Shown here piece by piece: positions 129-57,738 of a DNA stretch of 64,000 nt. The DNA is taken from NCBI GenBank assembly GCA_963771175.1, contig CAVYSY010000033.1, positions 512,001 through 576,000 of the forward strand, given 5' to 3'. Origin of the DNA: an uncultured delta proteobacterium (GTDB taxonomy: Bacteria > Myxococcota > Myxococcia > Myxococcales > Myxococcaceae). The first letter of the stretch is position 1. The number at the start of each line of letters is the position of its first letter. The notes beneath the pieces are model-generated. The model did not search any database, had not been told where the DNA came from, and worked only from the letters and a program-made list of their open reading frames with translations. The position numbers were made by a program, and so were the translations under genes.

Positions 129-876
129 TCACTTGTCCCGGCTCCCCAGTGGGTACGGTTTGTTCGCCCACTTTGCACGCATCCGTGCCGCCCTTTTTCG
201 CAGCTCGGCGAGATCGAGCGGGTTGGTCGCACGCCCCCAGTGCGCCACTACATGGCAATTCGGGCAGAGCAAAAGAAAGTCCTCCTTTTTGGGAGTCTTC
301 ATGCCCTGCCCGACGGGCCGCTTGTGATGCACATGAATCAGCGTCTCGTACTCGGGGCCGTAGGCGTCGAAGCTCAGGTCGCATGCCTCGCAGGCATAGG
401 GCTTCGAACGGCCTTGCAGTACAATTTTCCGGTTCCGGCTGCTCCGTTCAATCGCGTGGTGCGTGACGAGCTTCTTTCGGCCTTCCTCTTCGAGCGCTTC
501 GTCAGTCGTGAGGACCATTTCATCTGGGGCGTCGGCGGGCGGGAACAGCGTCAGCACTCGGGCCGGACACTTCTTGCAGCGAGTGATCTTCCTCGAACGG
601 CACGCCGTACCGGCTCACGAGGTGATCGATCAGCGCATTGGGGCTTTGGCTGCAGATCTTTTTGTACGCGCGCTGCGTCGCGCCGCCCGGACCATAGCGC
701 TTATCGCTCGTTGCAATCCCACATTTCGCGCTGTGCAGCTTGACGTATCTCTCGCTCGTCTCCTGAAAGGTGTTGATGAAGAAGCCACCCCCGTTCTTCG
801 CAACCCAGTCGAAGAAGGCTGTCGGCGGACTCGCGCTGTCAAACGTGCTGATCAACGCCTTCGGTTTCACAGGCAT
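129..876 (-). CDS. McrA-like HNH endonuclease with N-terminal Cys/His domain; one +1 frameshift near 592
   Basis: ATG at 876 with GAGG upstream. N-terminal part has LHSAKC...YKKICS. Removing one base near 592 joins it to KITRCKKC and on into the 129..557 frame with CEAC...IHVHH...LLCPNCH. Joined length about 248 aa. Confidence 0.75.
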
Positions 877-960
877 GCTCAACCTCAATGAGTAAGGAGC
901 TAAACGGTACGCCGGGGTTATTTTTCACCTTTGCGAGATCGCTGGGCACCCAAATCTTCC

Positions 961-1431
961 ATGACCTTCAACGAACTTTCGGAGTTGCTGGAGAGGACCC
1001 CCGCGAAGAGCTTTGGCCAGGGGGTGAGCGACATGGAGCTCAACACCGCCAGTGCTGAACTGGGGGTGGACCTGACCGGTGGTTATCGGCTCTTCTTGAA
1101 GCGCTTTGGGTGGGGAGGCGTTGGGTCCATCGAGCTCTTTGGGCTCGGTGTGGATGTTCCGCCATACTTGAGCCTTACCGCGATGGCCAGGAGTGAGCGG
1201 GAGGAAGCGAGTCCCGCGCTCCCCGCGCATCTCCTTCCTTTGATGAACGACGGGGGAGGCAATCTCTACTGCCTTGATTCCCGGGTATCGGGAGAGCCCC
1301 CTGTGGTGTTCTGGGACCACACAGCCGGAGAGCAGCAGGAGCCCGCACGGGTGGCAGCTGACTTCACGACATGGCTGGCCGAACGGGTCGAGCGAGAGCT
1401 GGCTGGCGAGGCCGATGCTCAGGAATCGTAG
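961..1431 (+). CDS. SMI1/KNR4 (SUKH) family immunity-like protein
   Basis: AELGVDLTGGYRLFLKRFG and LMNDGGGNLYCLD...PVVFWDH...ADFTTWL are typical SUKH motifs. Confidence 0.85.
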   Translation: MTFNELSELLERTPAKSFGQGVSDMELNTASAELGVDLTGGYRLFLKRFGWGGVGSIELFGLGVDVPPYLSLTAMARSEREEASPALPAHLLPLMNDGGGNLYCLDSRVSGEPPVVFWDHTAGEQQEPARVAADFTTWLAERVERELAGEADAQES

Positions 1432-1538
1432 CAGTTCACCCCATCTCGCTCAGCCCGGGATGCGCTCCCCATAGCAGGGGTGGAGAACGGGGCGTGCCCC
1501 GGTCCATGTCAGGGTGCCCCTCTAGAGTGCTCGGCGTC

Positions 1539-3947
1539 ATGAGACCCGAGAGAGAGCTGCACGACCTGTCTGGCGGGCAGAACGAGCCACTTCCGAAGCT
1601 GCCTGGGCGTGGCCAGTACACGGAGGGTGCCCGCCAGGAGAGGGTCGAGTTCCTCCAGCAGCACACGGGTATGCCTTTGCAGGCCTTGCAGCCGCTGTCG
1701 CTGCGGCCCGAGTCGCTGCTCCACAACGTGGAGAACCTGCTCGGGGCGGTCGAAGTACCCGTGGGAGTGGCCGGGCCCCTGCTGTTCCAGGGCCAGCATG
1801 CCCAGGGCACGCTCTTCCTCCCCGTGGCCACCACCGAGGGGGCCCTGGTCGCCTCCATCTGCCGTGGAGCGACCGCGCTCTCGCGCTCGGGCGGAGTGGT
1901 CACCCGGGTCCTCGCACAGCGGATGGTGCGAGCCCCCTTCTTCGAGTTCGACGGACTGGAGGAGGCCTGGCGCTTCTGCCGACTGCTGGAGGACTGCCTG
2001 CCCGCCCTCCGCGCACAGGTGCGGCGCGTGTCCGGCCACGCTCACCTGCTGGGCGTGGAGACGCAGGTGCTCGGCCGCTGCGTCTACACCCACTTCGTCT
2101 ATGAGACGGCGGACGCGGCCGGGCAGAACATGACGACGAGCTGCACCTGGTTCGCCTGCCAATGGCTGCTCGAGCGCCTGGAGCAGACCGGTCCGCGTCC
2201 GCGAATGTTCGTCGTGGACGGCAATGCCAGCGGCGACAAGAAAGTCGGCTTCCAGTCGTTCCTCGCCGGGCGGGGCACGCGCGTGGTGGCCGAGGTCCTG
2301 CTGACGCGCCAGAGCATCGAGCAGGTGCTGAAGACGACGCCCCAGGCACTCCTCGACGCCTACCAACTCTCGCTGGCCGCGGCCGTGCAGAGCGGGATGA
2401 TGGGCCACAACGTCAACGTGTCCAACGTGGTGGCTGGCGCCTTCGTCGCCACCGGCCAGGACGTCGCCTGCGTGCACGAGTCCAGCGTGGCTCAGCTGAT
2501 GCTGCGCCCCGAGCCGGAGGGCCTCTATGCCTCGATGCTGCTGCCCAGCCTGGTGGTGGGCACGGTGGGCGGTGGCACCCACCTGCCCCGGCAGCGAGCC
2601 CTGCTGGAGATGATGGGGTGTGCGGGCGAGGGGCAGACCCCGCGACTGGCGGAGATCATCGCTGGCTTCGCCCTGGCATTGGATCTCTCCACGCTCAGCG
2701 CGGTGATCAGCGGGCAGTTCGCCGCCGCGCACGAGCGGCTGGGGCGTAACCGCCCCGTGCGCTTCTTCTCCCGCGAGGATCTGACGGCGGACTTGCTGAA
2801 GCCGGCCCTGGAGCGCGCGGTACCGGGCGCCGAGTTGCTGGCGCTCGAGCCGCTGGGAGACCTGTCCCCAGGCGCCGGACTGCTCACCGAGCTCACCTCG
2901 CGCCGGCTCGGCCGCTCCAAGCAGATTGGCCACCAGCCCATGCGACTGCGGTACCGCACGGTCGGGGGCGAGCACGGCAGCCTCGAGCTCATGGTCAAGC
3001 TCAAGCCGCTGGACGAGGAGGTACTGCTGGCGGCTGGCACCGTGGCCGCGCTCGGAGGTGAGCGGCTGGCGCGGGCCTGGAGCCACTTCGGACGCCGCGT
3101 GGGTTTCGTCGGTACCCATTTGCGCGAGCTGGCCCTCGCGGAGCTGCGGGACGAGCGTCTGCGGCGGCACGCGCCGACGGTGTACCTCACCCACCGCGAC
3201 GACGCGCGCGAGGCCTATGTGCTGGTCATGGAGCTGCTGCGGGACGTGGAGCTGCTCGACAGCGCCGATGACCCGAGCGGCTGGGGCCCGGCGCAGCTGG
3301 AGGCGGCCCTGCGGGGCATCGCCCAGGTCCATGCCATCTGGTACGGGCGTGAGGACGAGCTGCTCGCACAGCCGTGGCTCGGCTACTGCTGGACAGCGCG
3401 GGGCATGGTCGAAGCGCGGGAGCTGTGGGAGGCGCTTCTGCGCCTGGCCGCGGACGAGTTGCCCGAGTGGTTCCCCCCCGAGGAGCTCGCCCTGCACGAG
3501 CGGCTGCTGGACACACTGCCCGAGTGGTGGGGGCAACTCGAGGCCCATCCCCGCACGCTCGTGCACAACGACTTCAACCCCCGCAACATCGCCCTGCGTG
3601 CCACTGGGGAGGGGCCGCGCCTGTGTGCCTATGACTGGGAGCTGGCCACCGCCCGCGCGCCCCAGCACGACCTGGCCGAGCTGCTCTCTTTCGTCCTCAC
3701 ACCCCAGGCCACGCACGCGCAGGTGGGGGCTCTGGTGGAGCTCCACCGACAGGCGCTCCAGGAGGCCACCGGCAGGCCCTTGGAGGCGCGGTCGTGGCGA
3801 GCCGGCTACGCGCTGTGCCTGCAGGACTTGCTGCTCCACCGCATGGGCCTGTACCTGCAGAGTCACGTCCACCGCGCCCAGCCCTTCACCGAGCGGGTGC
3901 TGCGTACCCTGCGCCACCTCATCCGCCTCGAGCGAGGCGAGAGCTGA
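1539..3947 (+). CDS. Class I-like HMG-CoA reductase fused to a C-terminal APH/choline-kinase-fold phosphotransferase
   Basis: HMGR motifs ENLLG-x-VEVPVGVAGP, ATTEGALVAS, DAAGQNM, GDKK, GQDVAC, GTVGGGT and AAAHERLGR. Kinase motifs HNDFNPRNI and YDWELA. Single uninterrupted frame; ATG 1539 chosen as likely start. Confidence 0.88.
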   Translation: MRPERELHDLSGGQNEPLPKLPGRGQYTEGARQERVEFLQQHTGMPLQALQPLSLRPESLLHNVENLLGAVEVPVGVAGPLLFQGQHAQGTLFLPVATTEGALVASICRGATALSRSGGVVTRVLAQRMVRAPFFEFDGLEEAWRFCRLLEDCLPALRAQVRRVSGHAHLLGVETQVLGRCVYTHFVYETADAAGQNMTTSCTWFACQWLLERLEQTGPRPRMFVVDGNASGDKKVGFQSFLAGRGTRVVAEVLLTRQSIEQVLKTTPQALLDAYQLSLAAAVQSGMMGHNVNVSNVVAGAFVATGQDVACVHESSVAQLMLRPEPEGLYASMLLPSLVVGTVGGGTHLPRQRALLEMMGCAGEGQTPRLAEIIAGFALALDLSTLSAVISGQFAAAHERLGRNRPVRFFSREDLTADLLKPALERAVPGAELLALEPLGDLSPGAGLLTELTSRRLGRSKQIGHQPMRLRYRTVGGEHGSLELMVKLKPLDEEVLLAAGTVAALGGERLARAWSHFGRRVGFVGTHLRELALAELRDERLRRHAPTVYLTHRDDAREAYVLVMELLRDVELLDSADDPSGWGPAQLEAALRGIAQVHAIWYGREDELLAQPWLGYCWTARGMVEARELWEALLRLAADELPEWFPPEELALHERLLDTLPEWWGQLEAHPRTLVHNDFNPRNIALRATGEGPRLCAYDWELATARAPQHDLAELLSFVLTPQATHAQVGALVELHRQALQEATGRPLEARSWRAGYALCLQDLLLHRMGLYLQSHVHRAQPFTERVLRTLRHLIRLERGES

Positions 3948-3948
3948 C

Positions 3949-4872
3949 ATGGCACCGCTCGCCCTCTGTCTGGAGGTGCTGCCGCGGCTGCAGATCGCCT
4001 TCGCCGCCTTCCTCGCACTGCTGGCCTTCGCCCCGCAGAGCCGCCGGCTGTCCGCCGCCACCCGTCGCGGGCTGTGGATCAAACTGGTCGTCTTCTACCT
4101 CATCACCCACCTCTTCCTGCTGCTGCTGACGCTGGGCGGGGTGTGGCTCCACGCCGGCCTGCTCCTGGTGGGGATGGCGGCCTGCCGCGAGCTGGTGGGG
4201 GTGCTCCTGCCCGAGCCTGGGCAGGCCCCCTACCGCGCCATGGCCTGGGCCGGGTCGCTCGCCGCGCTGCTGCTCGCCCCCTCCGAGACGGCCGAGGGGC
4301 CCCTGCTGCTCGCGCTCCTGCTCGCCACGCTCGCCTTGCCCGTGCTCGGGCGCCGGCCCGCGGGCTGCCATGTGGCCGTGGCCTCCACGCTGCTGGTCGT
4401 GATGCTCGCCGGAGCTCTGCCCCTGCGGCTGCTGTGGCTGCGCCAGGAGCAGGGCCTCGCCGCGGCCTTCCTCTTCCTGCTCATCGTCCTCAATGACGGG
4501 TTCGCCGAGGCCTGCGGGCGGTTGTTCGGGCGCCGCCCCTTCTTCCAATCCATCAGCCCCCAGAAGACGCTCGAGGGGGCATTGGGAGGCACCGCCGCGG
4601 CTCTTGCCGGGGCACTGCTCTTCCACCCCCTGCTGCCAATTCCCGCCTGGCAGCGGCTGCTGCTGGGGCTCGTCGCTTCCGTGGCCGGCCACCTGGGAGA
4701 CCTGGTCTTCTCGGCCCTCAAGCGCAGCGTGGGGCGTAAGGACTTCGACTCGCTGCTGCCGTCCCATGGTGGGGTGCTGGACCGATTCGACAGCCTGTGG
4801 GTGGCCGCTCCCGCCTTCCACCATGCCTACGGCGCACTCATCTCGCTCACCCAGGAAGGAAGGACTCCATGA
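3949..4872 (+). CDS. Phosphatidate cytidylyltransferase (CTP_transf_1) family membrane protein
   Basis: Hydrophobic protein with SPQKTLEG and GDLVFSALKRSVGRKDFDSLLPSHGGVLDRFDS signature. ATG lies 1 nt after the upstream stop. Confidence 0.9.
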   Translation: MAPLALCLEVLPRLQIAFAAFLALLAFAPQSRRLSAATRRGLWIKLVVFYLITHLFLLLLTLGGVWLHAGLLLVGMAACRELVGVLLPEPGQAPYRAMAWAGSLAALLLAPSETAEGPLLLALLLATLALPVLGRRPAGCHVAVASTLLVVMLAGALPLRLLWLRQEQGLAAAFLFLLIVLNDGFAEACGRLFGRRPFFQSISPQKTLEGALGGTAAALAGALLFHPLLPIPAWQRLLLGLVASVAGHLGDLVFSALKRSVGRKDFDSLLPSHGGVLDRFDSLWVAAPAFHHAYGALISLTQEGRTP

Positions 4873-7568
4873 GCCATACCCCGTTCTGCCTCCTGTCCGA
4901 GGCTCGCGCACCCGCGCAGGTGGGAGGCAAGGCTCACTCCCTATGCCGCATGCTCGAGCTGGGACTGCCTGTTCCCGAGGGCTTCGTTGTCACCGATCTG
5001 GCCTTCCAGGCCTTCCTCGAGCAGGAGGACCTCGGTGCGCGACTGGCCAGACTGCGGGAGGGGCTCGTCCCCGGAGGGCTGGAGGCCATCCATCACGCCT
5101 CGCGGCAGATACAGGAACTGGTGCGCCAGACGCCCCTCCCAGAGCCCCTGCGCGCCGAGCTGGCCCGCTGGCGCGAGCGGGAGCTGGCCGCTCAGGAGCT
5201 CATCGTCCGCAGCTCCGCCGTGGGCGAAGACTCGAACGCCGCATCCTTCGCCGGACAGCTCGACTCCATCATCGGCGTGCGCACCCAGCAGGAGCTCGAA
5301 CGCGCGCTGGTGGACTGCTGGGCCTCCTACTGGTCAGCCCGCTCGCTGGCCTACCAGCTCGCGCGGGGGGTGGCGCTCTCCGGTATGGGCGTCATCGTCC
5401 AGCGGCTGGTGCACCCGCGACTGGCCGGAGTGCTCTTCACCCAGGGCCCCCAGCTCGAACAGGGGAAGATGCTGGCCGAGTACTGCCACGGTCACGGAGA
5501 GGCGCTCGTGTCCGGCCGCGTCGACCCCGGCCGCTTCACCCTCTCTCGCGCGGACGGCTCCTGGCATCGGCTCTCGTGGCCCGAGCACGTGGTGCCCCAG
5601 GACGAGGGGCTGCTGTTCTGCCCCGCCGCCCTGGAGTCCCTGCGCGCTGGAGGGCTGAGGCTCGAGGAGCGACTGGGCGGGCCGCAGGACGTGGAGTGGG
5701 TGGTGGATGAGCAGGGGCGGGTCCTCTTCGTCCAGTCGCGACCCATCACCGCCCCGCTGGAGGCTCGGCCGGCGGCCCCCGTGGCCCCCAGGCCTCCCGA
5801 GCCCCCGCGCCGCCCCATTCTCTGGTCCAACGCCAACATCAACGAGAACTTCCCGGACCCGGTCACGCCACTGCTGTATTCGGTGGCGGCGGAGGGCTAC
5901 TACCACTACTTCCGCAACCTGGCGCTGGTGCTGGGAGTGGAGCCCGAGCGGGTACGGCGCATGGAGCACCCGCTGCGCCAGCTCATCGGCGTGCATGGTG
6001 CACGGCTGTACTACAACCTCACGCACATCCACGACTTCCTGCGCAGCGCCCCCTTCGGCGAGCAGCTCAGCGGCTACTTCGATCGGTTCATCGGCGCCTC
6101 CTTCCAGGAAGGAGCCGAGGCGCGCGACGCGGGGGCGCGGTCCGGGGCGGGGCTGACCGAGGCGCTGGAGGTGGCCCGCATCTTCCTGTCCACCACGCAT
6201 GTGTACTCGGAGCTGGAGGAGCATATCCGCCAGTTCGAGCAGCGGGTCGAGGCCTTCAGCGCGCGCACCCACCCGCGCCTGCTGCGGGAGCGAGACTTGA
6301 TAGGGCTGCGCGAGGACCTTCGCGGCTTCCTGGAGATTCGCTTCCACCGCTGGGTGCAGGCCTCACTCGCGGACGCGGCGGCCATGGTGTGCTTCGGGGT
6401 GCTCGAGCAGGTGCTGGAAGCGGCCATGCCGGAGCCGGAGGAGCGCGCGCTGCATGGCACGCTGCTCAAGGGGCTGTCCGGACTGGTGAGCAGCGCCCCC
6501 ATCGAGCGGCTCTGGGAGCTGTCGCGGCAGGTGCGCGGCGACCGGCGGCTGCGCGAGCTCTTCGAGCGTGAGAAGGGCGCGGCGCTGCTGGAGCAGGTGA
6601 GGGCCGGCTCCTTTCCCGAGTTCCACAAGGCGCTCGAGCGCTACCTGGAGGACTGGGGCTTTCGTGGCTCGGGGGAGCTGATGCTCACCGTGCCGAACTT
6701 CCAGGAGGAGCCGGCGGGGCTGCTGGAGCTGCTGCGCGGCTACGTATCGCTGGAGGGGCCCTCGCCGGCCGAGCTGCTCCGGCAGCAGGGAGCGGAGCGG
6801 GAGGCGGCCACGGCCCGGGTGCTGGCGAGGCTGAGGCAGCGCGCGCTGGTGCCCGGGATGCCCCGGGCTCTCCAGGCGAGGCTCTTCTCGCGGCTGCTGG
6901 ATTGGACACAGCGGGCCATCGCCTTTCGCGAGCGGGCCCGGCTCAAGCAAGCCCTGCTCTACACCCGGCTGCGCGCCATTTCCCTGGCCATCGGCCAGCG
7001 ACTGGTGGAGCACGGCCGGGTGGAACGGAGGGAGGATGCGTTCTTCCTGACCTGGCAGGAGTTGGAGTCCCTGCTCGGGGGAAGTGCCATGTTCCCCCAG
7101 GGCGTGGCGGAACTGGTGGCCCTGCGCCGCCGCCAGCACGAGGTGCTCTCCAAGCAGCGCCCGCCGGATCGACTGGTGCTTCCCGAAGGGGCGTCCTGGG
7201 AGCCCGAGCCGTGGGCCTCCGCTGCCGAGCCCGCCATGGCGGGGCGCGGGGTGCTGTCCGGGGTGGGGACATGTGGCGGGCGGGTGAGTGCTCCCGCCGC
7301 GGTGATCCAGGAGCTGGCCGAGGCTCACCGATTGGCCCCCGGCGACATCCTCGTCACCCGGCAGACGGATCCGGGCTGGGCGCCGGTGTTCTTCCTCATC
7401 AAGGGACTGATCATGGAGCGAGGGGGCATGCTCTCACACGGTTCGATCATCGCTCGCGAGCTGGGCATACCGGCGGTGGTCGGAGCGAAGGATGCGACAC
7501 GGCGGATCCGCCACGGGCAGGTGGTGGATCTGGATGGGGACCTGGGCCATGTGCGCCTGGGGGAGTGA
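4869..7568 (+). CDS. PEP-utilising enzyme with rifampicin phosphotransferase/PigC-like architecture (ATP-grasp, central domain, His-swivel domain)
   Basis: VGGKA, VRSSAVGEDS-x3-SFAGQ, QDVEW, QSRPIT; C-terminal TDPGW and GGMLSHGSIIARELGIPAV. ATGA overlap with the upstream gene. Confidence 0.9.
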   Translation: MSHTPFCLLSEARAPAQVGGKAHSLCRMLELGLPVPEGFVVTDLAFQAFLEQEDLGARLARLREGLVPGGLEAIHHASRQIQELVRQTPLPEPLRAELARWRERELAAQELIVRSSAVGEDSNAASFAGQLDSIIGVRTQQELERALVDCWASYWSARSLAYQLARGVALSGMGVIVQRLVHPRLAGVLFTQGPQLEQGKMLAEYCHGHGEALVSGRVDPGRFTLSRADGSWHRLSWPEHVVPQDEGLLFCPAALESLRAGGLRLEERLGGPQDVEWVVDEQGRVLFVQSRPITAPLEARPAAPVAPRPPEPPRRPILWSNANINENFPDPVTPLLYSVAAEGYYHYFRNLALVLGVEPERVRRMEHPLRQLIGVHGARLYYNLTHIHDFLRSAPFGEQLSGYFDRFIGASFQEGAEARDAGARSGAGLTEALEVARIFLSTTHVYSELEEHIRQFEQRVEAFSARTHPRLLRERDLIGLREDLRGFLEIRFHRWVQASLADAAAMVCFGVLEQVLEAAMPEPEERALHGTLLKGLSGLVSSAPIERLWELSRQVRGDRRLRELFEREKGAALLEQVRAGSFPEFHKALERYLEDWGFRGSGELMLTVPNFQEEPAGLLELLRGYVSLEGPSPAELLRQQGAEREAATARVLARLRQRALVPGMPRALQARLFSRLLDWTQRAIAFRERARLKQALLYTRLRAISLAIGQRLVEHGRVERREDAFFLTWQELESLLGGSAMFPQGVAELVALRRRQHEVLSKQRPPDRLVLPEGASWEPEPWASAAEPAMAGRGVLSGVGTCGGRVSAPAAVIQELAEAHRLAPGDILVTRQTDPGWAPVFFLIKGLIMERGGMLSHGSIIARELGIPAVVGAKDATRRIRHGQVVDLDGDLGHVRLGE

Positions 7569-8658
7569 GGAGTTACGCGCCTACGTGCGCGAGCGCTTTC
7601 CGCTCGCGCTCTACGTGCCGCTGGCGGTGCTCCTCGCGGTGGCAGCGGAGGTGGGGAGCGGGACGGAGCCGCTGGCCATGCGAGTGCGAGACGTGCTGCT
7701 GGCCTGGGGGCTCGTCTTCCAGTTCCGGTTGTGGGACGACCTGGCGGACCGGGAGAGGGACAGGCAGGAGCGGCCAGAGCGGGTGTTGAGCCGGGCCCGC
7801 TCGCCGCGCCCCTTTCATCGGTTGCTGGCGGTGGCGGCGGGGAGCAACGTGGTGCTGCTCAGTCTGCCCCGGCCCTCGCTCCCGGTATTGGGCGGCTATC
7901 TGGCGCTCCAGGCCGCCTTTCTCGGAGGGTACGCGGTGCTTCGGCACCGGCCGCGGTGGCGGCTGGGCGCCGCACTCGCGGTCCTCGCCAAGTACCCGGC
8001 CTTTGTCGCCCTGCTCGCCATGCCCGTGCACGGTGCTCCCGCCTGGCGCTTGCCACTCGCCATGGCGGTGGTGTTCCTGTGCTTCGGCGTCCACGAGCTG
8101 CTGCACGACGAGCGGCTGCGCTCCTCTGCCCTGGCCCTGCCCGTGCTCGTCGGCCAGGCGCTGGTCCTGCAGGGGCTGCTGGGGGGGCTGGTGTGGGCCG
8201 TGCGCGAGCGGGGCGCGGGTTGGCTGGCGGTGCAGGCGGTGCCGTGCCTGGCCACCGCCACCCTGCTGGCCTGGCTCATCCACCGATGGAGTGGGGGCCG
8301 AGCACCCGGCCCATACGCCTACGCTCTCTTCGCCCTCTGCCTGCTGCAGCTGATATTGAGTTCCGCCTCAATCCCTACTCAGCCGGTGCGCCCCATCAAG
8401 GAAGCGGAGGGCCCCGCGGCGGCGGTGCAGCCTCCATCGACCGCGAAGTCCTGGCCGGTGATGAACGAGGCCTTGTCGCTGAAGAGGAAGACGACGAGCT
8501 CGGCCACCTCCTCGGGCAGCCCCACGCGGTTCATCGGGTGGAGCGAGGCGGCGAAGGCGCGCCCCTGTGGCTCATCGAGCCGCCAGCCATCGGTGGCCAT
8601 CTCCGACTCGACGACACCGGGGCTCACCGCGTTCACCCGGATGCCCTTCTGCGCATAG
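7549..8658 (+). CDS. UbiA-prenyltransferase-like membrane protein; frame runs on antisense into the SDR gene
   Basis: YVRERFP start, Asp-rich FRLWDDLADRERDRQERPER motif, multiple hydrophobic segments ending near 8360. The last ~95 codons overlap the opposite-strand SDR and look non-genuine. Confidence 0.7.
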   Translation: MCAWGSEELRAYVRERFPLALYVPLAVLLAVAAEVGSGTEPLAMRVRDVLLAWGLVFQFRLWDDLADRERDRQERPERVLSRARSPRPFHRLLAVAAGSNVVLLSLPRPSLPVLGGYLALQAAFLGGYAVLRHRPRWRLGAALAVLAKYPAFVALLAMPVHGAPAWRLPLAMAVVFLCFGVHELLHDERLRSSALALPVLVGQALVLQGLLGGLVWAVRERGAGWLAVQAVPCLATATLLAWLIHRWSGGRAPGPYAYALFALCLLQLILSSASIPTQPVRPIKEAEGPAAAVQPPSTAKSWPVMNEALSLKRKTTSSATSSGSPTRFIGWSEAAKARPCGSSSRQPSVAISDSTTPGLTAFTRMPFCA

Positions 8659-9173
8659 TCGATGGCGGCACCGCGCGAGAGCGCGACGACGCCGGCCTTG
8701 GAGGCACTGTAGCCAGAGAGCCCAGGCAGGGCGCGCGAGGCGCCCACCGAGGCACAGTTGACGATGGAGCCCCCTCCGTTCGCGAGCATGGCGTTGAGCT
8801 GATGCTTCATGCACCAGAAGGTGCCGCGGAGGTTGGTGTTCATCAGCAGGTCGAACTCGTCATTGGTCATCTCGGCGAGCGGCTTCATGATGCCGGCACC
8901 GGCATTGTTGAAGGCGCCGTCGAGACGGCCATAGGTGGAGACCGCGGTCCGGACGAGCGCCTCGATGTCCCGCTCGACTCGCATGTCGGCGTTGACCCAC
9001 GTCACCTCTCCACCACGCTCCCGGATGTGGGCGACGAGCTCACGGCCCTTGGCTTCGCGTCGCGCGCTCGCGACCACCTTGGCGCCCTCGGCGGCGAGCG
9101 CGATGGCCGTGGCTCGGCCGATGCCCGAGCTCGCGCCCGTCACGAGGATTACCTTGTCAGTCAACATGCCCAT
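8379..9173 (-). CDS. Classical short-chain dehydrogenase/reductase (FabG-like)
   Basis: TGASSGIG, NNAG, YSASK, IRVNAVSPG motifs. Confidence 0.92.
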   Translation of the reverse strand: MGMLTDKVILVTGASSGIGRATAIALAAEGAKVVASARREAKGRELVAHIRERGGEVTWVNADMRVERDIEALVRTAVSTYGRLDGAFNNAGAGIMKPLAEMTNDEFDLLMNTNLRGTFWCMKHQLNAMLANGGGSIVNCASVGASRALPGLSGYSASKAGVVALSRGAAIDYAQKGIRVNAVSPGVVESEMATDGWRLDEPQGRAFAASLHPMNRVGLPEEVAELVVFLFSDKASFITGQDFAVDGGCTAAAGPSASLMGRTG

Positions 9174-9224
9174 CTCGCGTCCCCCAACACACAGTGTGAA
9201 CGGGCACCCGTCGCCGCTCAGGCC

Positions 9225-9240
9225 TGGCACCCGCGATGCC
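9225..9240 (+). promoter_or_regulatory. Putative sigma54 -24/-12 promoter for the thioesterase
   Basis: TGGCACCCGCGATGC gives GG-N10-GC with a TGGCAC -24 box, about 85 nt upstream of ATG 9326. Confidence 0.45.
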
Positions 9241-9325
9241 CGGCTATTGTAACCGAGTAACTGACGCCCCACCTCGGGTGCGCCCCGACCCGGGGGATTG
9301 ACGGGACCCGCCCGTCCTCCGCAGC

Positions 9326-10117
9326 ATGACGTCACCCCGCATGCTCGTTCCTCCCGTCTACCGCCGCTGGGTGACCTGTCCTGAGCCGCGCCCGCAGGCG
9401 AGCCTCCGCCTGTTCTGCTTCCACTTCGCGGGAGGAGATGCCTCGCTCTTCCGGCTGTGGACGAAGCAGCTCCCCTCCTCCATCGAGGTGTGTCCCATCG
9501 AGCTGCCGGGCCGGGCCAGCCGCCGCGCCGAGCCCCCCATCACCGCCTTTCCCGAGCTGCTCGAGAAGGTGGCGAGCATGGTGCGCCCCTTCCTCAAGGA
9601 GCGCCCCTCCGTCTTCTTCGGGCACAGCTTCGGCGGCATCACCGCCTTCGAGCTGACGCGCTGGCTGCGCCGCCAGGGTGGCCCCCTACCGCTGCGCCTC
9701 TTCCTCTCGGCCTGCCCGGCCCTGCACGTGCGGCCCCGGCCCGCTCCTCCCATCAGCCACCTGTCGGACGCGGAGTTCCTGGAGCAGATCGCCTCCCGGT
9801 ATGGCGCGCCCCGGGACGTGCTCGCCAGTGATGACGTCCGGGACACGGTGCTGCCCGCGTTGCGCGCGGACCTGCTCGTCGCCGAGAGCTACCGCTACGC
9901 CGAGGAGCCACCGCTGGACGTGCCCATCTCGTCCTTCGGCGCCTGGGAGGACCCGGAGGTCAGCCCCGGGGAGGCGGAGGCGTGGAGCCAGCAGACCACC
10001 ACCGACTTCCGCCTGCGCATGTTCCCGGGCAACCACTTCTTCCTCGCGGCCGAGCGGGCCCGGCTGCACCAGGCCATCCTCGAGGATCTCCAGGGGCAGG
10101 TCGGCGTCAGCGCCTGA
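9326..10117 (+). CDS. Type II thioesterase (GrsT/RifR-like)
   Basis: RLFCFHFAGG, ELPGR, GHSFG nucleophile elbow, FPGNHFF. Confidence 0.9.
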   Translation: MTSPRMLVPPVYRRWVTCPEPRPQASLRLFCFHFAGGDASLFRLWTKQLPSSIEVCPIELPGRASRRAEPPITAFPELLEKVASMVRPFLKERPSVFFGHSFGGITAFELTRWLRRQGGPLPLRLFLSACPALHVRPRPAPPISHLSDAEFLEQIASRYGAPRDVLASDDVRDTVLPALRADLLVAESYRYAEEPPLDVPISSFGAWEDPEVSPGEAEAWSQQTTTDFRLRMFPGNHFFLAAERARLHQAILEDLQGQVGVSA

Positions 10118-10226
10118 CGGGAGGCCCCGGCAATTTCCCCGGCGACCCGGGCGTTCCCGGTAGTCTTCCGCCCGCGCCGCCAGGCCTCCCCGCCCACCGG
10201 GCAGGCGGCCTCCGAGGACCCCGTAC

Positions 10227-11183
10227 GTGCTCACCCGCTACTCCGATTGGAAGAAGCCGACCGACGCGGCCTATGCATTCCAGCTCCGTGCGGTGGCTCC
10301 CGAGCGGGCGGACGGGTTCACCCCGGAGCTTCCCGCGCCTGGGACTCGGAGTGACATCCGGCAGGTCGCCCGAGAGGTCCTCGAGGACGGAGCGGCGGAC
10401 CGTTTCGAGCAGCGAATCCACCGCTGGTCCGGCCCGGAGGACGTGGTCGGCGAGGCGGGCGAGAAACCCTACGAGGGCCAGCAGCACACCTTCGCGGAGC
10501 ACGCGTGGCGGAACGCGCTCACGATGCGCGACCTCGACTCGGTGCTCCGGGGCGACGTCCTGGTGATGAGGGGCCGCGCCGGGCAGGCGGACTATGTGCT
10601 GCGCGACCACCACATGCTCGACGTGGCCCTCTACCACTACCGCACGACGGGGGAGCTGCCGCGCACCCTCTTCCACGCGGATCGCCACTCCGACTGGTGC
10701 AAGGACAGCTTCCTGGAGTCGCGCACGCCCCCGCAGGCGGCCACCTGGTGGAAGCTCTTCGAGGGGCTCAAGCGGCCGGAGGGCTCCGAGCCCGTGCTCA
10801 ACGAGCAGGACGTCTTCTTCACCACCGCCCAGGCCGAGCACCGGCCCTGGATGACCGGCCGGAACGTGGACGCCTCCCTCCGCGTCCCCTGGTTCGTGGA
10901 CACCGGCGAGCTGCACTGGCAGCAGGTGCTCGACCGGCCCGGCGCGACCGGGACGGATTGGGTCTCCTTGGACCTGGACTACTTCCAGCCCTCGCCGCAG
11001 CTCCGGCTGAGCGGTGGCCTCCTGCGGGATGCGCGCTTCCACGGGATGATGGCGGAGGCCCGGGTCCGGGTCTTCGTGCTCTCGCCCCAGTTCACCAATG
11101 GGGGAGACAAGATCGATCCCTGGGAGATCCAGGGCGGCCTCCACTCGACGCTCCGGCTGCTGAACCTGCTGCGCCGACCCTGA
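10227..11183 (+). CDS. Arginase/deacetylase-fold (UPF0489-like) hypothetical protein
   Basis: DHH, HADRHSD and SLDLDYF metal-binding-type motifs; GTG start. Confidence 0.55.
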   Translation: MLTRYSDWKKPTDAAYAFQLRAVAPERADGFTPELPAPGTRSDIRQVAREVLEDGAADRFEQRIHRWSGPEDVVGEAGEKPYEGQQHTFAEHAWRNALTMRDLDSVLRGDVLVMRGRAGQADYVLRDHHMLDVALYHYRTTGELPRTLFHADRHSDWCKDSFLESRTPPQAATWWKLFEGLKRPEGSEPVLNEQDVFFTTAQAEHRPWMTGRNVDASLRVPWFVDTGELHWQQVLDRPGATGTDWVSLDLDYFQPSPQLRLSGGLLRDARFHGMMAEARVRVFVLSPQFTNGGDKIDPWEIQGGLHSTLRLLNLLRRP

Positions 11184-11249: not shown

Positions 11250-13463
11250 TTACGGCTTGGTGTAGTTGAGGGTCAGGGTGTAGGAGCCCGCGGAGGCGCC
11301 GCGCACCATGACGTAGGCGTTGCTCTGACCGGCCGGCACCGTGAGGGTGCACGTCTCGGAGGCGCCGGACGCGTTCGAGCGGCAGTCGTAGGCGCTGGTG
11401 GTGGGCGCCGAGCCGAAGCGCACGTACAGGTCGGGGTTGCCCGAGCCCGTCATGGTCACCGTGAAGGAGGTGCCGGCCACCACGCTGTACGGGCCGTAGT
11501 TGTCGAGCTCGCGCTTGGCCACGGTGCCGCTGACCGTCTCGGTCACCGGCGTGCCGGTGCCGCCGCCCGAGCCGCTGTAGCTGCCCTTGAGGGTGACGCC
11601 CGAGTACGCCGAGTAGGCGTTGAGCATCACGTACCAGGTGCCCGCGGCCGGGTTGGTGAAGGAGCAGAGCTCCGCGTTGCCGCTCTTGTACGGACGGCAG
11701 TCGTAGGTGCTGGAGCTCGGGACGGCGCCGTAGCGCACGTACAGGTCCGCGTCACCCGTGCCGCCGCTGATCTCGAAGGCCACGCTCGGCTGACCGGCGG
11801 GCACCTCGAGCGAGTAGTACTTCTTGTTGCCGGAGCTGCCGGAGAGGCTGCTCACCGGCACGCCGTTGGTCAGCGGGTCGACCACCGGAGGCGGAGGAGG
11901 CACGCCCACGGCCTTCCAGGCCTCGTTGACGGCGCTCGCCTCGGCCGAGCCCGCACCGTAGAGGGCCTCGGCGGCCTGCACGGTGTACGTCTTGGCCTGC
12001 TCGAAGGTGGTGCCGGAGGTGAAGAGGTCCGTGTTGGCCTTGTAGAAGATGCGGCCGGCCTTCTCCGGGCCAATCGCCGCCACGGCGTTGCTCGTCTTGC
12101 CACGCGGGTGCGTGCCGCCCTTGGAGAGCATCGAGAACACCAGGTTGCTGATGCCCGAGCTGTAGTGCACGTCCACGCCCGAGGAGTAGTCGCCGTAGAA
12201 GTCGAGCGAGCTGCCGTCCTTGGCCGGGTCGTCCATGTAGCGGAGCGCGTCACCCGCGGTGGCCGGCGTCCAGATGTCCTCGCCAATCTTGAAGACGTCC
12301 GCGTCCACCGCCCAGCTGCGCGTCCAGCTCTCGCACACGCCGGCGAAGATGTCGGACATGGACTCGTTGAGGCCGCCGGACTCACCCGAGTACACGAGGT
12401 TCGACTCGGTGTCCGTCACGGCGTGGGTCAGCTCGTGGACGGTCACGTCCAGGTCCTTGCCCAGCTCGATGGAGTCCGTGCCGTTGCCGTCGCCGTACAC
12501 CATCTGGGTGCCGTCCCAGTAGGCGTTGACGTAGTTGGTGCTGTAGTGGACCGTGCTGGTGAGCGTGGCGCCCGCGTTGTCGTACGAGTCGCGACCGAAG
12601 AGCACGCTGTAGCACTCGTAGGTCTTCCCCAGCATGTCGTAGTTGATGTCGACGTGGGCATCGCCGATGGCGGCCTGGCCCTCGCTGCGCTTGAGGGTGC
12701 CCGGGGTGCTGGTGCCGTTGTTGGCCGAGTACACCTTGCGGTTCATCGCGGTGTGGATGAGCGGGTTCACCAGCAGGGTGCCGCCGCGCTCCGCGTCCAC
12801 GTAGACGAGGTCATCGGCGGGCATGCCGTCGCGCTCGCCCTTCACGCGAACCTCGTAGGCCAGCCGAGGCTCCTGGCTGCCCTCGGAGCGCAGGTAGAGC
12901 AGCTTCGCCCCGCCCTCGGCGAAGGCACCGCGCGCGGAGGAGCCGTCCACGGCCGCCTTCAGCGCGGCCTCGGGGGCGACCTTCGCCCGCGCGGGCGCCA
13001 GCGAGCCATCACGGGCCGAGCCGTTGGCGCCGTAGACATTGCCCGCCGCGTCCACGTGCACGACGAGCTCGCCGCCCACCACCGGGAGGCCGTTCTTCGT
13101 CTGCTGGAAGCGCAGGTGCCGGTGGCCCTGCTCGTCCACCGTGGTGCGCTGGAACACCAGGTCGTTCCCGCTCACCCGGAACACCGGGCCCACGAGGCTC
13201 AGCGCCTCACGCACATCCAGGTCCGCCGAGCGCGCCAGCGTGCCCTGTACCTGGGCCGCCCGACCGAACTGACCCCGGACGGAGTAGGGAACGCCCTCGT
13301 CGCTGCCCAGCACCTGGGCACCCTTGATGCGAGCCAGAGCAGAGCGGATGTCCGCGTCATCGCCCGCGCTCACGGGCGCCTCGCCCTCCTGCATCGAACC
13401 GCACGCGGCCAGGCTCGCACCGAGCCACGCCACACAAAACGTCTTCAAGAACCGGTTGCTCAC
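11250..13463 (-). CDS. M4 (thermolysin-family) metalloprotease lipoprotein with FTP/PepSY propeptide and two PPC domains
   Basis: LAAC lipobox, NAYWDG, HELTH, GGLNES-x-SD, VHYSSG; two GDADLYV/GNPDLYV repeats. GTG start with GGAGAGG upstream. Confidence 0.93.
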   Translation of the reverse strand: MSNRFLKTFCVAWLGASLAACGSMQEGEAPVSAGDDADIRSALARIKGAQVLGSDEGVPYSVRGQFGRAAQVQGTLARSADLDVREALSLVGPVFRVSGNDLVFQRTTVDEQGHRHLRFQQTKNGLPVVGGELVVHVDAAGNVYGANGSARDGSLAPARAKVAPEAALKAAVDGSSARGAFAEGGAKLLYLRSEGSQEPRLAYEVRVKGERDGMPADDLVYVDAERGGTLLVNPLIHTAMNRKVYSANNGTSTPGTLKRSEGQAAIGDAHVDINYDMLGKTYECYSVLFGRDSYDNAGATLTSTVHYSTNYVNAYWDGTQMVYGDGNGTDSIELGKDLDVTVHELTHAVTDTESNLVYSGESGGLNESMSDIFAGVCESWTRSWAVDADVFKIGEDIWTPATAGDALRYMDDPAKDGSSLDFYGDYSSGVDVHYSSGISNLVFSMLSKGGTHPRGKTSNAVAAIGPEKAGRIFYKANTDLFTSGTTFEQAKTYTVQAAEALYGAGSAEASAVNEAWKAVGVPPPPPVVDPLTNGVPVSSLSGSSGNKKYYSLEVPAGQPSVAFEISGGTGDADLYVRYGAVPSSSTYDCRPYKSGNAELCSFTNPAAGTWYVMLNAYSAYSGVTLKGSYSGSGGGTGTPVTETVSGTVAKRELDNYGPYSVVAGTSFTVTMTGSGNPDLYVRFGSAPTTSAYDCRSNASGASETCTLTVPAGQSNAYVMVRGASAGSYTLTLNYTKP

Positions 13464-13767
13464 TCGCACCTCTCCGAAGAAGGTGCCTCTTTCTTGACAT
13501 GCATGTTGCTTGGGTTTCAAGGCGAGGTGCTGATTTTCCCGATTTTTTCCGATGACTATTTGTAAACGTCGAAGAGAAACCAACTGGCTCCTCTGTAAAT
13601 GCTGTCAGGGTGATGGGTTTTTCTCTGGCCGCGAGAAAAACCAGTTCCCGGCGGGCCTCGAATGCCCACCATGAACGCCGCCTGGAACGGCGCGATGAAC
13701 CGGGGGAGGCGGGCCGCTATCCTGCGCTCCCCTCCCCTCGCGGCCCCAGGAACCCGAAGAGCCCTCC

Positions 13768-22502: not shown

Positions 22503-24926
<2,424 letters not shown>

Positions 24927-24932
24927 TAGGTC

Positions 24933-26342: not shown

Positions 26343-26388
26343 GAAGCAGGCGGTCTGAGGCAGTTCGGACACAGCTGAGGCACACCTC

Positions 26389-51710: not shown

Positions 51711-51837
51711 GCGCTAGTGCACGTTGCCGGCGGGCTCGGGGCGGAGTCCCGGGCCGGACCTCCGGGAGTCGGTTAACCTCTCGGCCCGCGTCCGGCTCTG
51801 GACGCCGTTTCCACCTCCATCCAGGACACGCCCGCCC

Positions 51838-57281: not shown

Positions 57282-57722
57282 CATCAGCATGCCAACGACT
57301 CTCTTTTCTTCCAAGACTTTGGCAATCTCTCTTCTTCCAAGGCTCTGGTAATAATACGGGGTGGTGCTGGAGAGGCTCGGAATCGGGACGACCGGGTTCG
57401 AGTCTGGGGTTGACGGAGTAAGCAGCGTTGTGGCCGGGCCCAGCTTGCCTGTCTTCGTCATACTTCGTAATATCATCATCTTACTTTGTAATACTTTAGG
57501 ACCAAACATCTGACCCGGGGTCAATCCATACACAGACCCCGTGGAATCTGTCGCAAGACAAGACACCCCGCTGAGGCGCGGTGACTTCGTCTGGAATCAA
57601 CGGGTTGGGCGGAGTGGATGTAAAGCCTGGGTACATTCAGGGCCGGGCGGGATGTGACATCCCTGCTCCAGTGCGAACGCCGGGAAGGTGAACGAGGGCA
57701 GGAATTCCAACGCTTTATAGGT

Positions 57723-57738
57723 TGGCCTGTTTCCTGCT
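57723..57738 (+). promoter_or_regulatory. Putative sigma54 promoter for the second M4 peptidase
   Basis: TGGCCTGTTTCCTGCT gives GG-N10-GC, about 60 nt upstream of the start. Confidence 0.5.

Follow-up and report, generated by a model that had tools for sequence, protein, structure and literature searches.

Four open reading frames lie on one strand of the window, by which we mean the whole 64,000-nucleotide stretch of DNA analysed. They occupy positions 1539-3947, 3949-4872, 4869-7568 and 7549-8658, and are referred to here as g1, g2, g3 and g4. Direct reading of the sequence places the TGA stop of g1 at 3945-3947 and the ATG of g2 at 3949, leaving a gap of 1 nt. The tetranucleotide ATGA (4869-4872) is common to g2 and g3. 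The g4 ATG at 7549 precedes the g3 stop codon (7566-7568), giving an overlap of 20 nt. Note that an alternative g4 start, ATG 7534, would extend this overlap to 35 nt; we favour this start because the closest g4 relatives begin MGTWAMCAW. Similarly, the g1 start at 1539 is supported since its closest relatives, P0033 and P0034, are also 802 aa long. With one 1-nt gap and two overlaps, these tightly packed genes probably form a single operon. A preliminary description of the DNA had noted four same-strand genes, with tight junctions and catalytic-type motifs, and we confirm that they are real. The motifs are those of an HMG-CoA reductase (HMGR) and a kinase in g1, a CdsA-type core in g2, a swivel histidine in g3 and the Asp-rich sequence DDLADRERD in g4.

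By Pfam and NCBIfam, the g1 product (1539..3947, plus strand, 802 aa) has two domains, a reductase resembling HMG-CoA reductase and, fused to it, a small-molecule kinase. The reductase domain (aa 32-403; 1632..2747, plus strand) has a class I HMGR fold and matches PF00368 (E 3.6e-102) over the full length of the profile (positions 2-368 of 368). Among solved structures its best relative is 6hr7, an archaeal HMGR that matches along 347 residues with E 2.9e-72. The catalytic residues E65, D233-K234-K235, D308 and H398 align with those of archaeal and plant HMGRs. Fusions of HMGR and kinase are common, and 112-113 of the 113 compared retain these catalytic residues (E, DKK, D, H). Two further positions, the canonical GRGK lysine and the N-x-H histidine, are present in HMGRs from Vibrio, Alteromonas, Brevibacillus, archaea and plants. 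We take these to be residues that contact HMG. In g1, the lysine is replaced by threonine (position 247). Across the 113 fusions, the same position is T (47), I (21), V (21), M (7) or L (5), among others, and never K; the next residue is Arg in 104. Asn takes the place of the histidine (position 293) in 110 of the 113. For TIGR00533, the NCBI HMGR equivalog, g1 scores 277.3, below the cut-off of 441.8. The two changed pocket positions, and the low equivalog score, fit the earlier suggestion that this is not housekeeping mevalonate synthesis. On the other hand, the domain is well matched to archaeal HMGR, has all catalytic residues and belongs to a family in which an Arg mostly comes right after the lost Lys; HMG-CoA may yet be its substrate. 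A Pfam scan of 48 window ORFs, a non-exhaustive set, found no domain of HMG-CoA synthase, GHMP kinase, IPP isomerase or diphosphomevalonate decarboxylase; absence of the first three had been noted previously.

The kinase domain of g1 (2769..3947, plus strand) has an APH/EcKL/choline-kinase-like fold (PF02958, E 6.4e-6). The match, between aa 541 and 743, reaches a score of 26.2, where the cut-off is 22. Motifs HNDFNPRN and DWE are present, the former being a catalytic HxDxxxxN loop that recurs in 102 of 120 family members. Searching with the AF2 model (pLDDT 90.3) in Foldseek gave 211 PDB matches with E<=1e-3, led by hydroxyl kinases. These include a putative APH (3dxp), an N-acetylhexosamine kinase, the 25-hydroxysteroid kinase 9fsg and the choline kinase LicA.

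The second gene, g2 (3949..4872, plus strand), encodes a CdsA-like membrane cytidylyltransferase of 307 aa. It matches PF01148 (CTP_transf_1) with E 7.4e-46 and 157.6 bits, against a gathering score of 24. The CdsA equivalog NF008635 matches the C-terminal half only, scoring 76.3 against a cut-off of 385. This half holds the invariant CdsA-type core, which acts on phosphatidate-like lipids. Full-length relatives of the g2 type form only five clusters, apart from the window's own. Next, g3 (4869..7568, plus strand, 899 aa), which we call PEPU together with its relatives, encodes a three-domain His-swivel dikinase of the RPH/PigC/PEP-synthase type. Pfam matches are PPDK_N (E 2.5e-57) and PEP-utilizers (E 3.6e-24). 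The swivel-His motif reads GGMLSHGSIIARELGIPAVVG, and the SH within it lines up with that of 5hv2. Among PDB entries, 5hv2, 5fbs and 5hv1 match best, and they share the swivel His. No NCBIfam equivalog reaches its cut-off: RPH (328 versus 999), PigC (286 versus 1300), RedH (321 versus 1350) and the best model, NF004881 (477 versus 883). The middle of g3, about residues 300 to 550, presumably corresponds to the substrate-binding domain of RPH and gave no phmmer match.

The conserved core of g4 (7534..8376, plus strand; the start may be 7549) encodes a membrane protein of ~280 aa, about 275 residues of which are conserved, with a predicted UbiA fold. Its AF2 model (pLDDT 88.1, pTM 0.86) was matched by Foldseek to DGGGP synthase (6m31/7bpu), the UbiA homologues 4od4/4tq4, and 8j8j, with TM scores of 0.60-0.64. 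The matches span the full length (280-298 columns, probability 0.99-1.00). Invariant motifs are QFRLWDD..D....PERVL, KY and E..HD. In UbiA enzymes, the first Asp-rich motif is NDxxDxxxD; its counterpart in g4 is DDLADRERD, with D68, D69 and D76 invariant. The position of the second Asp-rich motif holds only E188..H191-D192. There was no Pfam or NCBIfam match to g4, and PF01040 is found in 5 of 31 g4 relatives. Hence, the previous assignment holds for the predicted fold and first Asp motif and not for the family, there being no PF01040 match at E<=5; we use UbiA-like in this sense, of modelled fold and motif. The last ~93 codons of the frame (about 8377-8658, plus strand) are a non-conserved tail, missing from 13 of 13 aligned relatives. 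This tail is antisense to a real, convergent SDR gene (8379-9170, minus strand; adh_short_C2 E 4.2e-68). We therefore rejected g4 as a gene conserved through 8658. A type II thioesterase gene and the SDR gene adjoin the g1-g4 unit. At the 36 related loci described below, tblastn (E 1e-5) listed no match of at least 45 bits for the SDR, and none is listed for the thioesterase. We found no support for counting the SDR as part of the unit.

Our searches placed relatives of the UbiA-like gene at 36 loci, which belong to at least eight phyla. PEPU, 43-59% identical to g3, lies directly upstream at 35 of these; at the other, the sequence ends 56 nt before the UbiA-like match. Typically, the operon has 9-10 genes, including those for a desaturase, a CarS-like protein, PEPU, the UbiA-like protein, a methyltransferase, PlsC, a FAAL and an ACP-thioester reductase-kinase. 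PlsC occurs at 32 of 36 loci and a CDP-alcohol phosphatidyltransferase at 18. The best NCBIfam matches of the latter, at locus L001, are archaetidylserine synthases, and the best match of the CarS-like gene is CDP-archaeol synthase. At 25 loci a kinase domain is found within 10 kb, invariably fused behind the ACP-thioester reductase; of the 11 loci with no kinase, six have under 3 kb of sequence downstream of the point where the UbiA-like match begins. HMGR was found at none of the 36. The common form of the operon has FAAL and ACP-thioester reductase instead of HMGR. In the window, the HMGR-like reductase replaces FAAL, ACP and reductase, and the CdsA-like gene fills the CarS slot. By profile comparison (hhalign probability 95.1%, E 3e-8) the g2 and CarS-like families are homologous, and their operon slots are equivalent. 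A CTP-transferase-superfamily gene immediately precedes PEPU both in the window and, as the CarS-like gene, at 27 of 36 loci. The g1 kinase shares 35-49% identity with the kinase domain on thioester reductases at the 25 loci. In a tree of the kinases, 24 TR-fused and 45 HMGR-fused domains separate on a single split (SH-aLRT 100). Two unrelated alcohol-forming thioester reductases are joined to one kinase family, which speaks for the alcohol being passed on to the kinase.

Two loci from Nitrospiria have a third set of genes: a standalone NAD_binding_4 reductase, a DAGK_cat lipid kinase and CTP_transf_1, assigned by Pfam at L003 and by tblastn matches at L012. Three non-orthologous role sets thus surround PEPU and the UbiA-like gene: FAAL/ACP-TR-kinase/CarS-like, reductase/DAGK_cat/CTP_transf_1 and, in the window, HMGR-kinase/CTP_transf_1. 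The exact four-family set is at none of the 36 loci. Relatives of g1, g2 and g4 lie on contigs of matching lengths, 51777 and 63490, and from this match we infer the same set on two other contigs only. Conserved co-occurrence, as previously proposed, is therefore borne out for kinase, PEPU and UbiA-like genes, which are syntenic across phyla, and not for the exact combination, which is rare. The window is without the PlsC, methyltransferase, desaturase and CDP-alcohol transferase of the typical operon; its product may therefore differ. When FAAL, TR and PlsC of L001 and L004 were compared with the window by tblastn, only kinase and PEPU parts matched. Among the gene clusters common to the 36 loci, no decarboxylase, HMG-CoA synthase or IPP isomerase is listed. 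On a Brevibacillus plasmid, HMGR, UbiA (PF01040) and PEPU genes are consecutive, in a cluster that also holds P450, GNAT and AMP-binding genes. This HMGR retains the canonical Lys and His, so the trio can occur with a probably genuine HMG-CoA reductase. On a Streptomyces plasmid, a P-loop kinase, again a second kinase, comes after an HMGR-kinase gene that has FAAL-PKS, NRPS-like, thioesterase and PPTase genes around it.

We suggest that the four-gene unit probably converts an acyl-CoA to a phosphorylated alcohol, for attachment to a membrane lipid. The unit is a rare version of a widespread and apparently undescribed bacterial operon, resembling archaeal ether-lipid synthesis. More specifically, and tentatively, at somewhat short of an even chance, we favour a route that would reduce, phosphorylate, transfer and CDP-activate to yield a membrane lipid of unusual type, most likely with an ether linkage. 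The scheme starts from what the sequences show (gene order, domain identities, catalytic motifs, fusions and synteny); its chemistry throughout, its substrate and acceptor, and the order of its last three steps are our inference. Briefly, the HMGR-like domain of g1 would reduce an acyl-CoA thioester to a primary alcohol, a four-electron reduction using NAD(P)H; the substrate is probably other than canonical HMG-CoA and probably hydrophobic. The fused kinase would phosphorylate this alcohol, and the His-swivel dikinase g3 would add a second phosphate, producing a diphosphate. At its Asp-rich Mg-diphosphate site, g4 would then transfer the alkyl group to a membrane hydroxyl acceptor, which may be glycerol-phosphate-like, by analogy with DGGGP synthase. 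Lastly, CdsA-like g2 would convert the resulting phosphatidate analogue to a CDP-lipid, ready for a head group. Enzymes of the UbiA family are known to use allylic prenyl diphosphates or PRPP as donors. To our knowledge, a saturated alkyl diphosphate is unprecedented in this role, and no enzyme to render the chain allylic was found in the window. PEPU could phosphorylate a different hydroxyl instead of the phosphate. The logic of reduction, phosphorylation, activation and transfer, set out in the preliminary description, is plausible and is strengthened because three non-orthologous versions fill the same role set; we keep it conditional. Overall, that interpretation gains from the single tight unit and cross-phylum synteny, and loses from the rarity of the exact combination. 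Its isoprenoid half found no direct support. Our literature search found no characterised pathway with this gene combination.

Comparison with the archaeal ether-phospholipid pathway reveals likenesses at several points. The best structural matches of UbiA-fold g4 are DGGGP synthases (6m31, 7bpu), a CarS-like gene, of a family homologous to g2, is upstream of PEPU in related operons, and the CDP-alcohol transferase of those operons is archaetidylserine-synthase-like. Conversely, the cluster has no GGGP synthase or prenyl diphosphate synthase, the donor presumably coming from the thioester reductase-kinase. A His-swivel dikinase, FAAL and PlsC come in addition, in bacterial hosts. Furthermore, g4 is only 12% identical to DGGGP synthase and has no match to PF01040. 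In phytol salvage, by plants and cyanobacteria, the phytol kinase VTE5 (CTP_transf_1) and phytyl-phosphate kinase VTE6 act before UbiA-family VTE2 or ChlG. The proposed route would share the passage from lipid alcohol to monophosphate, diphosphate and UbiA-family transfer, and a CTP_transf_1 member. Unlike in salvage, the alcohol would be made de novo via the fused reductase, the window kinases are APH-type and PEP-synthase-type, and g2 resembles a cytidylyltransferase more than a kinase. In the myxobacterial Elb ether-lipid system, as described, ElbD has FAR-like, acyl-CoA synthetase, ACP and acyltransferase domains, ElbA/ElbE are epimerase-family proteins, ElbB is a HAD protein and ElbC is of unknown function (PMC9131029). 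FAAL, ACP, thioester reductase and PlsC-type acyltransferase of the typical related operon correspond to the ElbD activities; the Elb cluster as described is without kinase, PEPU, UbiA-like or CTP-transferase genes (PMC9131029). The window holds no ElbD-type domain (FAR, ACS, ACP, acyltransferase).

Logically, an HMGR-kinase fusion might instead signal a non-canonical mevalonate front end, which we consider unlikely but credible. Here, g1 would convert HMG-CoA to mevalonate and then phosphorylate this, its APH-type kinase replacing GHMP mevalonate kinase. A phosphomevalonate kinase analogue, g3, would follow, its product would enter prenyl diphosphate synthesis to supply g4 as the prenyltransferase, and g2 would activate the prenylated lipid. 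As with class I HMGR and mevalonate kinases, g1 has a full-length HMGR fold with complete catalytic residues and then predicted phosphorylation of the product alcohol. The Brevibacillus trio, with its canonical-looking HMGR, also points this way, as does the P-loop kinase after the Streptomyces HMGR-kinase gene; animal phosphomevalonate kinase has a P-loop kinase fold. Prenyl diphosphates are the normal substrates of UbiA enzymes, again in favour. However, the fusion partner is APH-type, not GHMP kinase, and the pocket is altered family-wide, with the GRGK Lys in 0 of 113 fusions and His changed to Asn in 110. The g1 score is under the equivalog cut-off, and no further mevalonate-pathway gene is nearby: diphosphomevalonate decarboxylase, HMG-CoA synthase and IPP isomerase are absent from the 48 window ORFs scanned with Pfam (non-exhaustive) and unlisted among clusters common to the 36 loci. 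Moreover, members of the kinase's sister clade are fused to thioester reductases that are fed by FAAL and yield fatty alcohols. It is decidedly unlikely that the unit acts at the head group, g2 turning the alkyl phosphate from g1 into a CDP-alcohol whose alkyl-phospho group passes to an acceptor. PEPU and the UbiA-like protein would then act on a separate partner, for instance by acceptor prenylation or phosphorylation. Their strict pairing (35 of 36 loci) would be left with no role linked to the reductase-kinase, and g2 keeps a CdsA-type core for phosphatidate-like lipids. The CTP-transferase gene between reductase-kinase and PEPU in the window, and the CDP-alcohol phosphatidyltransferase at 18 of 36 loci, would suit this arrangement. 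So would the CTP-dependent lipid-alcohol kinases that the CTP_transf_1 superfamily includes.

Tailoring of a secondary metabolite, or self-resistance, is improbable. PEPU would be RPH-like (drug phosphorylation) or PigC-like (ATP-driven condensation) and decorate a small molecule. With RPH, PigC/RedH and PEP synthase, g3 does share its three-domain architecture and conserved swivel-His motif, and NCBIfam RPH, RedH and PigC models match, but all far under their cut-offs. Unlike those enzymes, PEPU is paired with a UbiA-like membrane protein (35 of 36 loci), and its partners across at least eight phyla are of phospholipid type (PlsC, CarS-like, CDP-alcohol transferase). The type II thioesterase and SDR beside the unit would fit tailoring, although neither has a listed match at the 36 loci. 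The FAAL-PKS, NRPS-like, thioesterase and PPTase genes around the Streptomyces HMGR-kinase, and the P450, GNAT and AMP-binding genes of the Brevibacillus cluster, also fit. That g1-g4 are unrelated and merely neighbours, as the exact four-family set at 0 of 36 loci might suggest, is extremely improbable. The junctions comprise a 1-nt gap and two overlaps, kinase, PEPU, UbiA-like and CTP-transferase superfamily genes occur together across phyla, and relatives of g1, g2 and g4 are apparently together on two other contigs.

The unit comprises four genes on the forward strand. The tight junctions noted in the preliminary description can be read directly from the DNA: a 1-nt gap, an ATGA overlap, and an overlap of 20 nt. 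The first gene, g1 (1539-3947, with stop codon TGA at 3945-3947), encodes an HMG-CoA_red domain (amino acids 32-403, E 3.6e-102) fused to an EcKL/APH-type kinase, according to Pfam and NCBIfam. One base past this stop, g2 begins (3949-4872; CTP_transf_1, E 7.4e-46) and shares the ATGA overlap with g3 (4869-7568), which has PPDK_N and PEP-utilizers matches. We refer to this dikinase as PEPU; it has the RPH/PEP-synthase architecture, and the swivel His is intact. The fourth gene, g4, starts at 7549, giving the 20-nt overlap, or at 7534, giving the 35-nt overlap, and its frame is open to 8658. Note that, because the window has a G+C content of 63-72%, long spurious ORFs abound. The frames assigned to g1-g4 are those having family matches or conserved relatives. 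For g1, g2 and g3, every NCBIfam equivalog score fell below its cut-off. Judged by their sequences, the three are divergent family members, not housekeeping enzymes. Consistent with the preliminary description, the 48 window ORFs scanned, a non-exhaustive set, yielded no domain for HMG-CoA synthase, GHMP kinase or IPP isomerase. A promoter and terminator scan of positions 800-10300 returned one promoter-like and three terminator-like sites, not above shuffles.

No Pfam or NCBIfam family matches g4, even at E<=5. Its relatives, 31 of which were recovered by a word-indexed search, are some 270-280 amino acids long; five match PF01040 (UbiA). All 13 relatives that were aligned end approximately 93 codons before the window stop, and g4 has no stop at that point. 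Hence, the g4 tail (about 8377-8658) is unconserved; it is antisense to the 3' end of a genuine SDR gene (8379-9170, minus strand), and may reflect either a true extension or loss of the stop. Residues QFRLWDD..D....PERVL, KY and E..HD are invariant. Over its full length, and with TM scores of 0.60-0.64, the AlphaFold2 model of the core (pLDDT 88.1, pTM 0.86) matches DGGGP synthase (6m31, 7bpu), UbiA homologues from Aeropyrum and Archaeoglobus, and 8j8j, a membrane PRPP transferase. When 1.84 billion proteins were searched with a family profile, 1004 representatives were recovered at E<=1e-3, of which 312 reached E<=1e-30. Together, the relatives, model matches and profile counts indicate that g4 is, as modelled, a UbiA-fold enzyme belonging to a sizeable but unnamed subfamily. 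One relative, P0360 (969 amino acids, UbiA-like part C-terminal), was considered as a fusion to PEPU. P0360 carries no Pfam domain and does not resemble g3, and is therefore probably an over-long ORF.

When species-representative genomes were scanned for the g4 family, 55 stretches matched and 36 loci were confirmed. All are in MAGs, from Planctomycetota, Acidobacteriota, Nitrospirota, Nitrospinota, Gemmatimonadota, Myxococcota, Verrucomicrobiota, Gammaproteobacteria and Binatia. A PEPU gene is directly upstream of the UbiA-like gene at 35 of the 36; the exception, L005, breaks off 56 nt ahead of the match. Also present are genes for a methyltransferase and a PlsC-type acyltransferase (32/36 each), an FA_desaturase-like protein (29/36), a CarS-like protein, a FAAL and a thioester reductase (27/36 each), and a CDP-alcohol phosphatidyltransferase (18/36). 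A kinase domain homologous to that of g1 (35-49% identity) occurs at 25 loci. In six of the 11 kinase-less loci, the sequence runs out within 3 kb past the point where the UbiA-like match begins; L003, L005, L013, L021 and L028 have at least 9 kb of downstream sequence and still no g1-type kinase. Gene clustering, with Pfam and NCBIfam, gave the typical order: (CDP-alcohol transferase), desaturase-like, CarS-like, PEPU, UbiA-like, methyltransferase, PlsC, FAAL, and ACP-thioester reductase-kinase. This operon of 9-10 genes spans at least 8 phyla (for example, L001:4867-17157 and L004:2204-13014). At L001, the best NCBIfam models are archaetidylserine synthase for the transferase and CDP-archaeol synthase for the CarS-like protein, in both cases below cut-off. 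At L029:12590-17478, an RVT_1 (reverse-transcriptase) ORF, which may be an insertion into the operon, adjoins a FAAL seemingly split into two AMP-binding pieces. The desaturase, methyltransferase, PlsC, FAAL and typical-operon reductase genes are all missing from the window. The preliminary description had read the four genes as one dedicated pathway. Synteny supports this for the PEPU, UbiA-like and kinase genes, but not for HMGR, which is found at 0 of the 36 loci. The window carries a rare variant, built around HMGR, of a widespread operon that is apparently undescribed in the literature searched.

Several flanking genes were also considered. The SDR and a type II thioesterase downstream of it (9326-10117, plus strand) were rejected as unit members: no match is listed for them at the 36 loci, the thioesterase is not conserved at related loci, and the resemblance to Streptomyces SDR and thioesterase proteins is generic (29-31%). 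Directly upstream of g1, a SUKH/SMI1-KNR4 family protein (931-1431, plus strand) is likewise not conserved at related loci.

The fusion of HMGR to a kinase is not peculiar to the window. When the kinase part was used as query, 392 of the 8000 candidates scored reached E<=1e-3. PF00368 is also present in 119 of the best 120 matches, window protein included; these are mostly labelled "HMG-CoA reductase" or "phosphotransferase", and the sources named for some of them include Pseudomonas, Marinobacter, gamma proteobacterium HdN1 and Pendulispora. We aligned 113 fusions: the window protein, a Streptomyces protein, and 111 matches of at least 700 amino acids (eight shorter ones were omitted). Each of the catalytic elements (Glu, DKK, Asp, His) is kept in 112-113 of the 113. 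Conversely, the canonical GRGK Lys is kept in none (T in 47, I in 21, V in 21, M in 7, L in 5, and others), and canonical His 293 is Asn in 110. Both positions are canonical in Vibrio, Alteromonas, Brevibacillus, archaeal and plant HMGRs. We take the replaced residues to be equivalent to K735 and H752, in the HMG pocket of the human enzyme, where K735 pairs with the HMG carboxylate. Loss of the pocket Lys would fit an acyl-CoA substrate without this carboxylate. An Asp/Glu change at position 227 was dropped as a family feature because stand-alone Vibrio and Brevibacillus HMGRs also carry D or E. In a quick maximum likelihood tree of kinase domains, one branch (SH-aLRT 100) parts those fused to thioester reductases from those fused to HMGR, with the window on the HMGR side. 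The tree has 24 reductase-fused rows, one kinase locus having failed the length filter, and 45 HMGR-fused rows. The latter were subsampled by taking P0033-P0040 and, after these, every third match, with at least 700 amino acids and the HMGR-end motif required. The structural model of the g1 kinase (pLDDT 90.3) resembles hydroxyl kinases, among them a 25-hydroxysteroid kinase and choline kinases.

Three role sets surround PEPU and the UbiA-like gene. In the typical operon, a FAAL and an ACP-thioester reductase are paired with a reductase-fused APH/EcKL-type kinase, and a CarS-like gene is upstream of PEPU. The window has an HMGR-like reductase, fused to the same type of kinase, and the CdsA-like g2 upstream of PEPU. 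The g2 and CarS-like families are homologous (hhalign 95.1%, E 3e-8, 90 columns). At the Nitrospiria locus L003, the reductase is a stand-alone NAD_binding_4 protein, the kinase is a DAGK_cat lipid kinase, and CTP_transf_1 is upstream of PEPU. At L012, CTP_transf_1 and reductase tblastn matches have the same order. On the opposite strand of this variant region (L003:3422-6228, and the corresponding part of L012), there is an MFS-PlsC-AMP-binding (Aas-like) gene. A further arrangement is found on the Brevibacillus laterosporus plasmid NZ_CP011076.1 (L040:3329-14717, minus strand), with consecutive genes for HMGR, UbiA (PF01040, E 2.7e-15), PEPU (27.5% identical to g3), DUF3419, a 439-aa membrane protein, GNAT, AMP-binding and P450. 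The DUF3419 protein is presumably BtaA-like. The membrane protein was considered as a CTP_transf_1 relative and set aside: hhalign gave an E of 0.0047 but a probability of 7.5%. The kinase search also found P0110, a 1170-aa protein joining HMG-CoA_red, DUF3419 and APH domains, which links DUF3419 to the HMGR-kinase family.

We infer every chemical step of the following route. The reductase-kinase fusion would convert an acyl thioester to an alcohol and then to a phosphate ester. This is the best-supported step, because a single kinase family is found fused to two alcohol-forming thioester reductases that are unrelated to each other. The DAGK-type kinase of the Nitrospiria version and the FAAL of the typical operon suggest that the alcohol is hydrophobic. 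PEPU would then make a diphosphate for the UbiA-like enzyme to consume. Such a role is the simplest link between PEPU and its constant partner, a UbiA-fold protein in which the first of the Asp-rich motifs of diphosphate-using enzymes is retained. Next, the UbiA enzyme, similar to DGGGPS, would couple the alkyl diphosphate to a glycerol-phosphate backbone. After ether bond formation, the CarS/CdsA-like enzyme would provide CDP activation. These later steps have a parallel in archaeal lipid assembly, both for the CarS/CdsA-like gene and for the PlsC and CDP-alcohol transferase of the typical operon. The weakest point is the UbiA donor; we know of no precedent for a saturated alkyl diphosphate in this role. 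As a whole, we put forward only tentatively, and consider rather less than probable, an archaeal-style ether-lipid route, unrecognised in many bacterial phyla, in which reductase-kinase and His-swivel dikinase yield an alkyl diphosphate for DGGGPS-like coupling and CDP activation, the HMGR fold having been recruited as an acyl-CoA reductase in the window lineage.

Other explanations can be weighed against the same genes, chance adjacency among them. The PEPU genes closest to g3 (59% identity) belong to Myxococcota MAGs. Relatives of the unit's genes come from contigs of matching length: 51777 for g1 and g2 (90% and 87% identity), and 63490 for g1, g2 and g4 (61%, 70% and 58%). These shared lengths suggest that the same cluster may be present in two related genomes. 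A route specific to mevalonate would be in keeping with the canonical HMGR of Brevibacillus, but not with the lack of a decarboxylase.

The genes might instead form a cassette for small-molecule tailoring or resistance. On the plasmid of Streptomyces sp. NBC_01435 (L037:14557-18121), an HMGR-kinase gene, followed by one for a P-loop dTMP-kinase-like protein, is surrounded by FAAL-PKS, NRPS-like, thioesterase, SDR and PPTase genes, and no PEPU or UbiA gene lies closer than 15 kb. A 454-aa ORF upstream is not a hidden UbiA, because it has no Pfam (E<=1e-4) or NCBIfam (E<=1e-3) family and no TM-like segment. Alternatively, the genes could serve a CDP-alcohol head-group route.

In the full-text literature searched (with subscription journals and bioRxiv supplements outside its scope), there was no description of an HMGR-kinase fusion, a reductase-kinase/PEPU/UbiA operon, or a bacterial fatty alcohol kinase. 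PMC12419801 has HMGR with a GHMP kinase and an unrelated UbiA neighbourhood. Elb-type clusters are covered in bioRxiv 10.64898/2026.06.23.733905, in the text of which the words UbiA, phosphoenolpyruvate and cytidylyltransferase do not appear. PMC9131029 describes the make-up of the elb operon and states that full characterisation of the Myxococcus ElbD ether-lipid pathway, in its steps and enzymes, is still needed. How alkyl ether bonds form in aerobic bacteria is an open question and, if the ether-lipid route is correct, the operon is a concrete, testable candidate gene set. The large HMGR-kinase family would gain a function other than mevalonate synthesis, RPH-type dikinases would acquire a lipid-biosynthetic role, and there would be a new class of HMGR substrate and a non-allylic UbiA donor. 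The loci occur in phyla including Acidobacteriota, Planctomycetota, Nitrospirota, Gemmatimonadota and Myxococcota. Ether lipids of such phyla matter as environmental biomarkers.

Elsewhere in the window, positions 22596-27800 encode a two-domain terpene synthase (777 amino acids, two Terpene_syn_C_2 stretches, geosmin-synthase-like), then two SrpI-like family-2 encapsulin shell proteins, one with a cNMP-binding domain. Terpene synthases and family-2 encapsulins are a known pairing. A second terpene synthase, with a single domain, is at 59768-60844 (minus strand). The genes at 11250-13583 (minus strand) and 57722-59695 (plus strand) are paralogues and encode M4 peptidases of the thermolysin type, which have FTP propeptide and PPC domains. 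Finally, at 51724-53418 (plus strand), another APH-type phosphotransferase domain is joined in one protein with a P-loop kinase domain (AAA_33).
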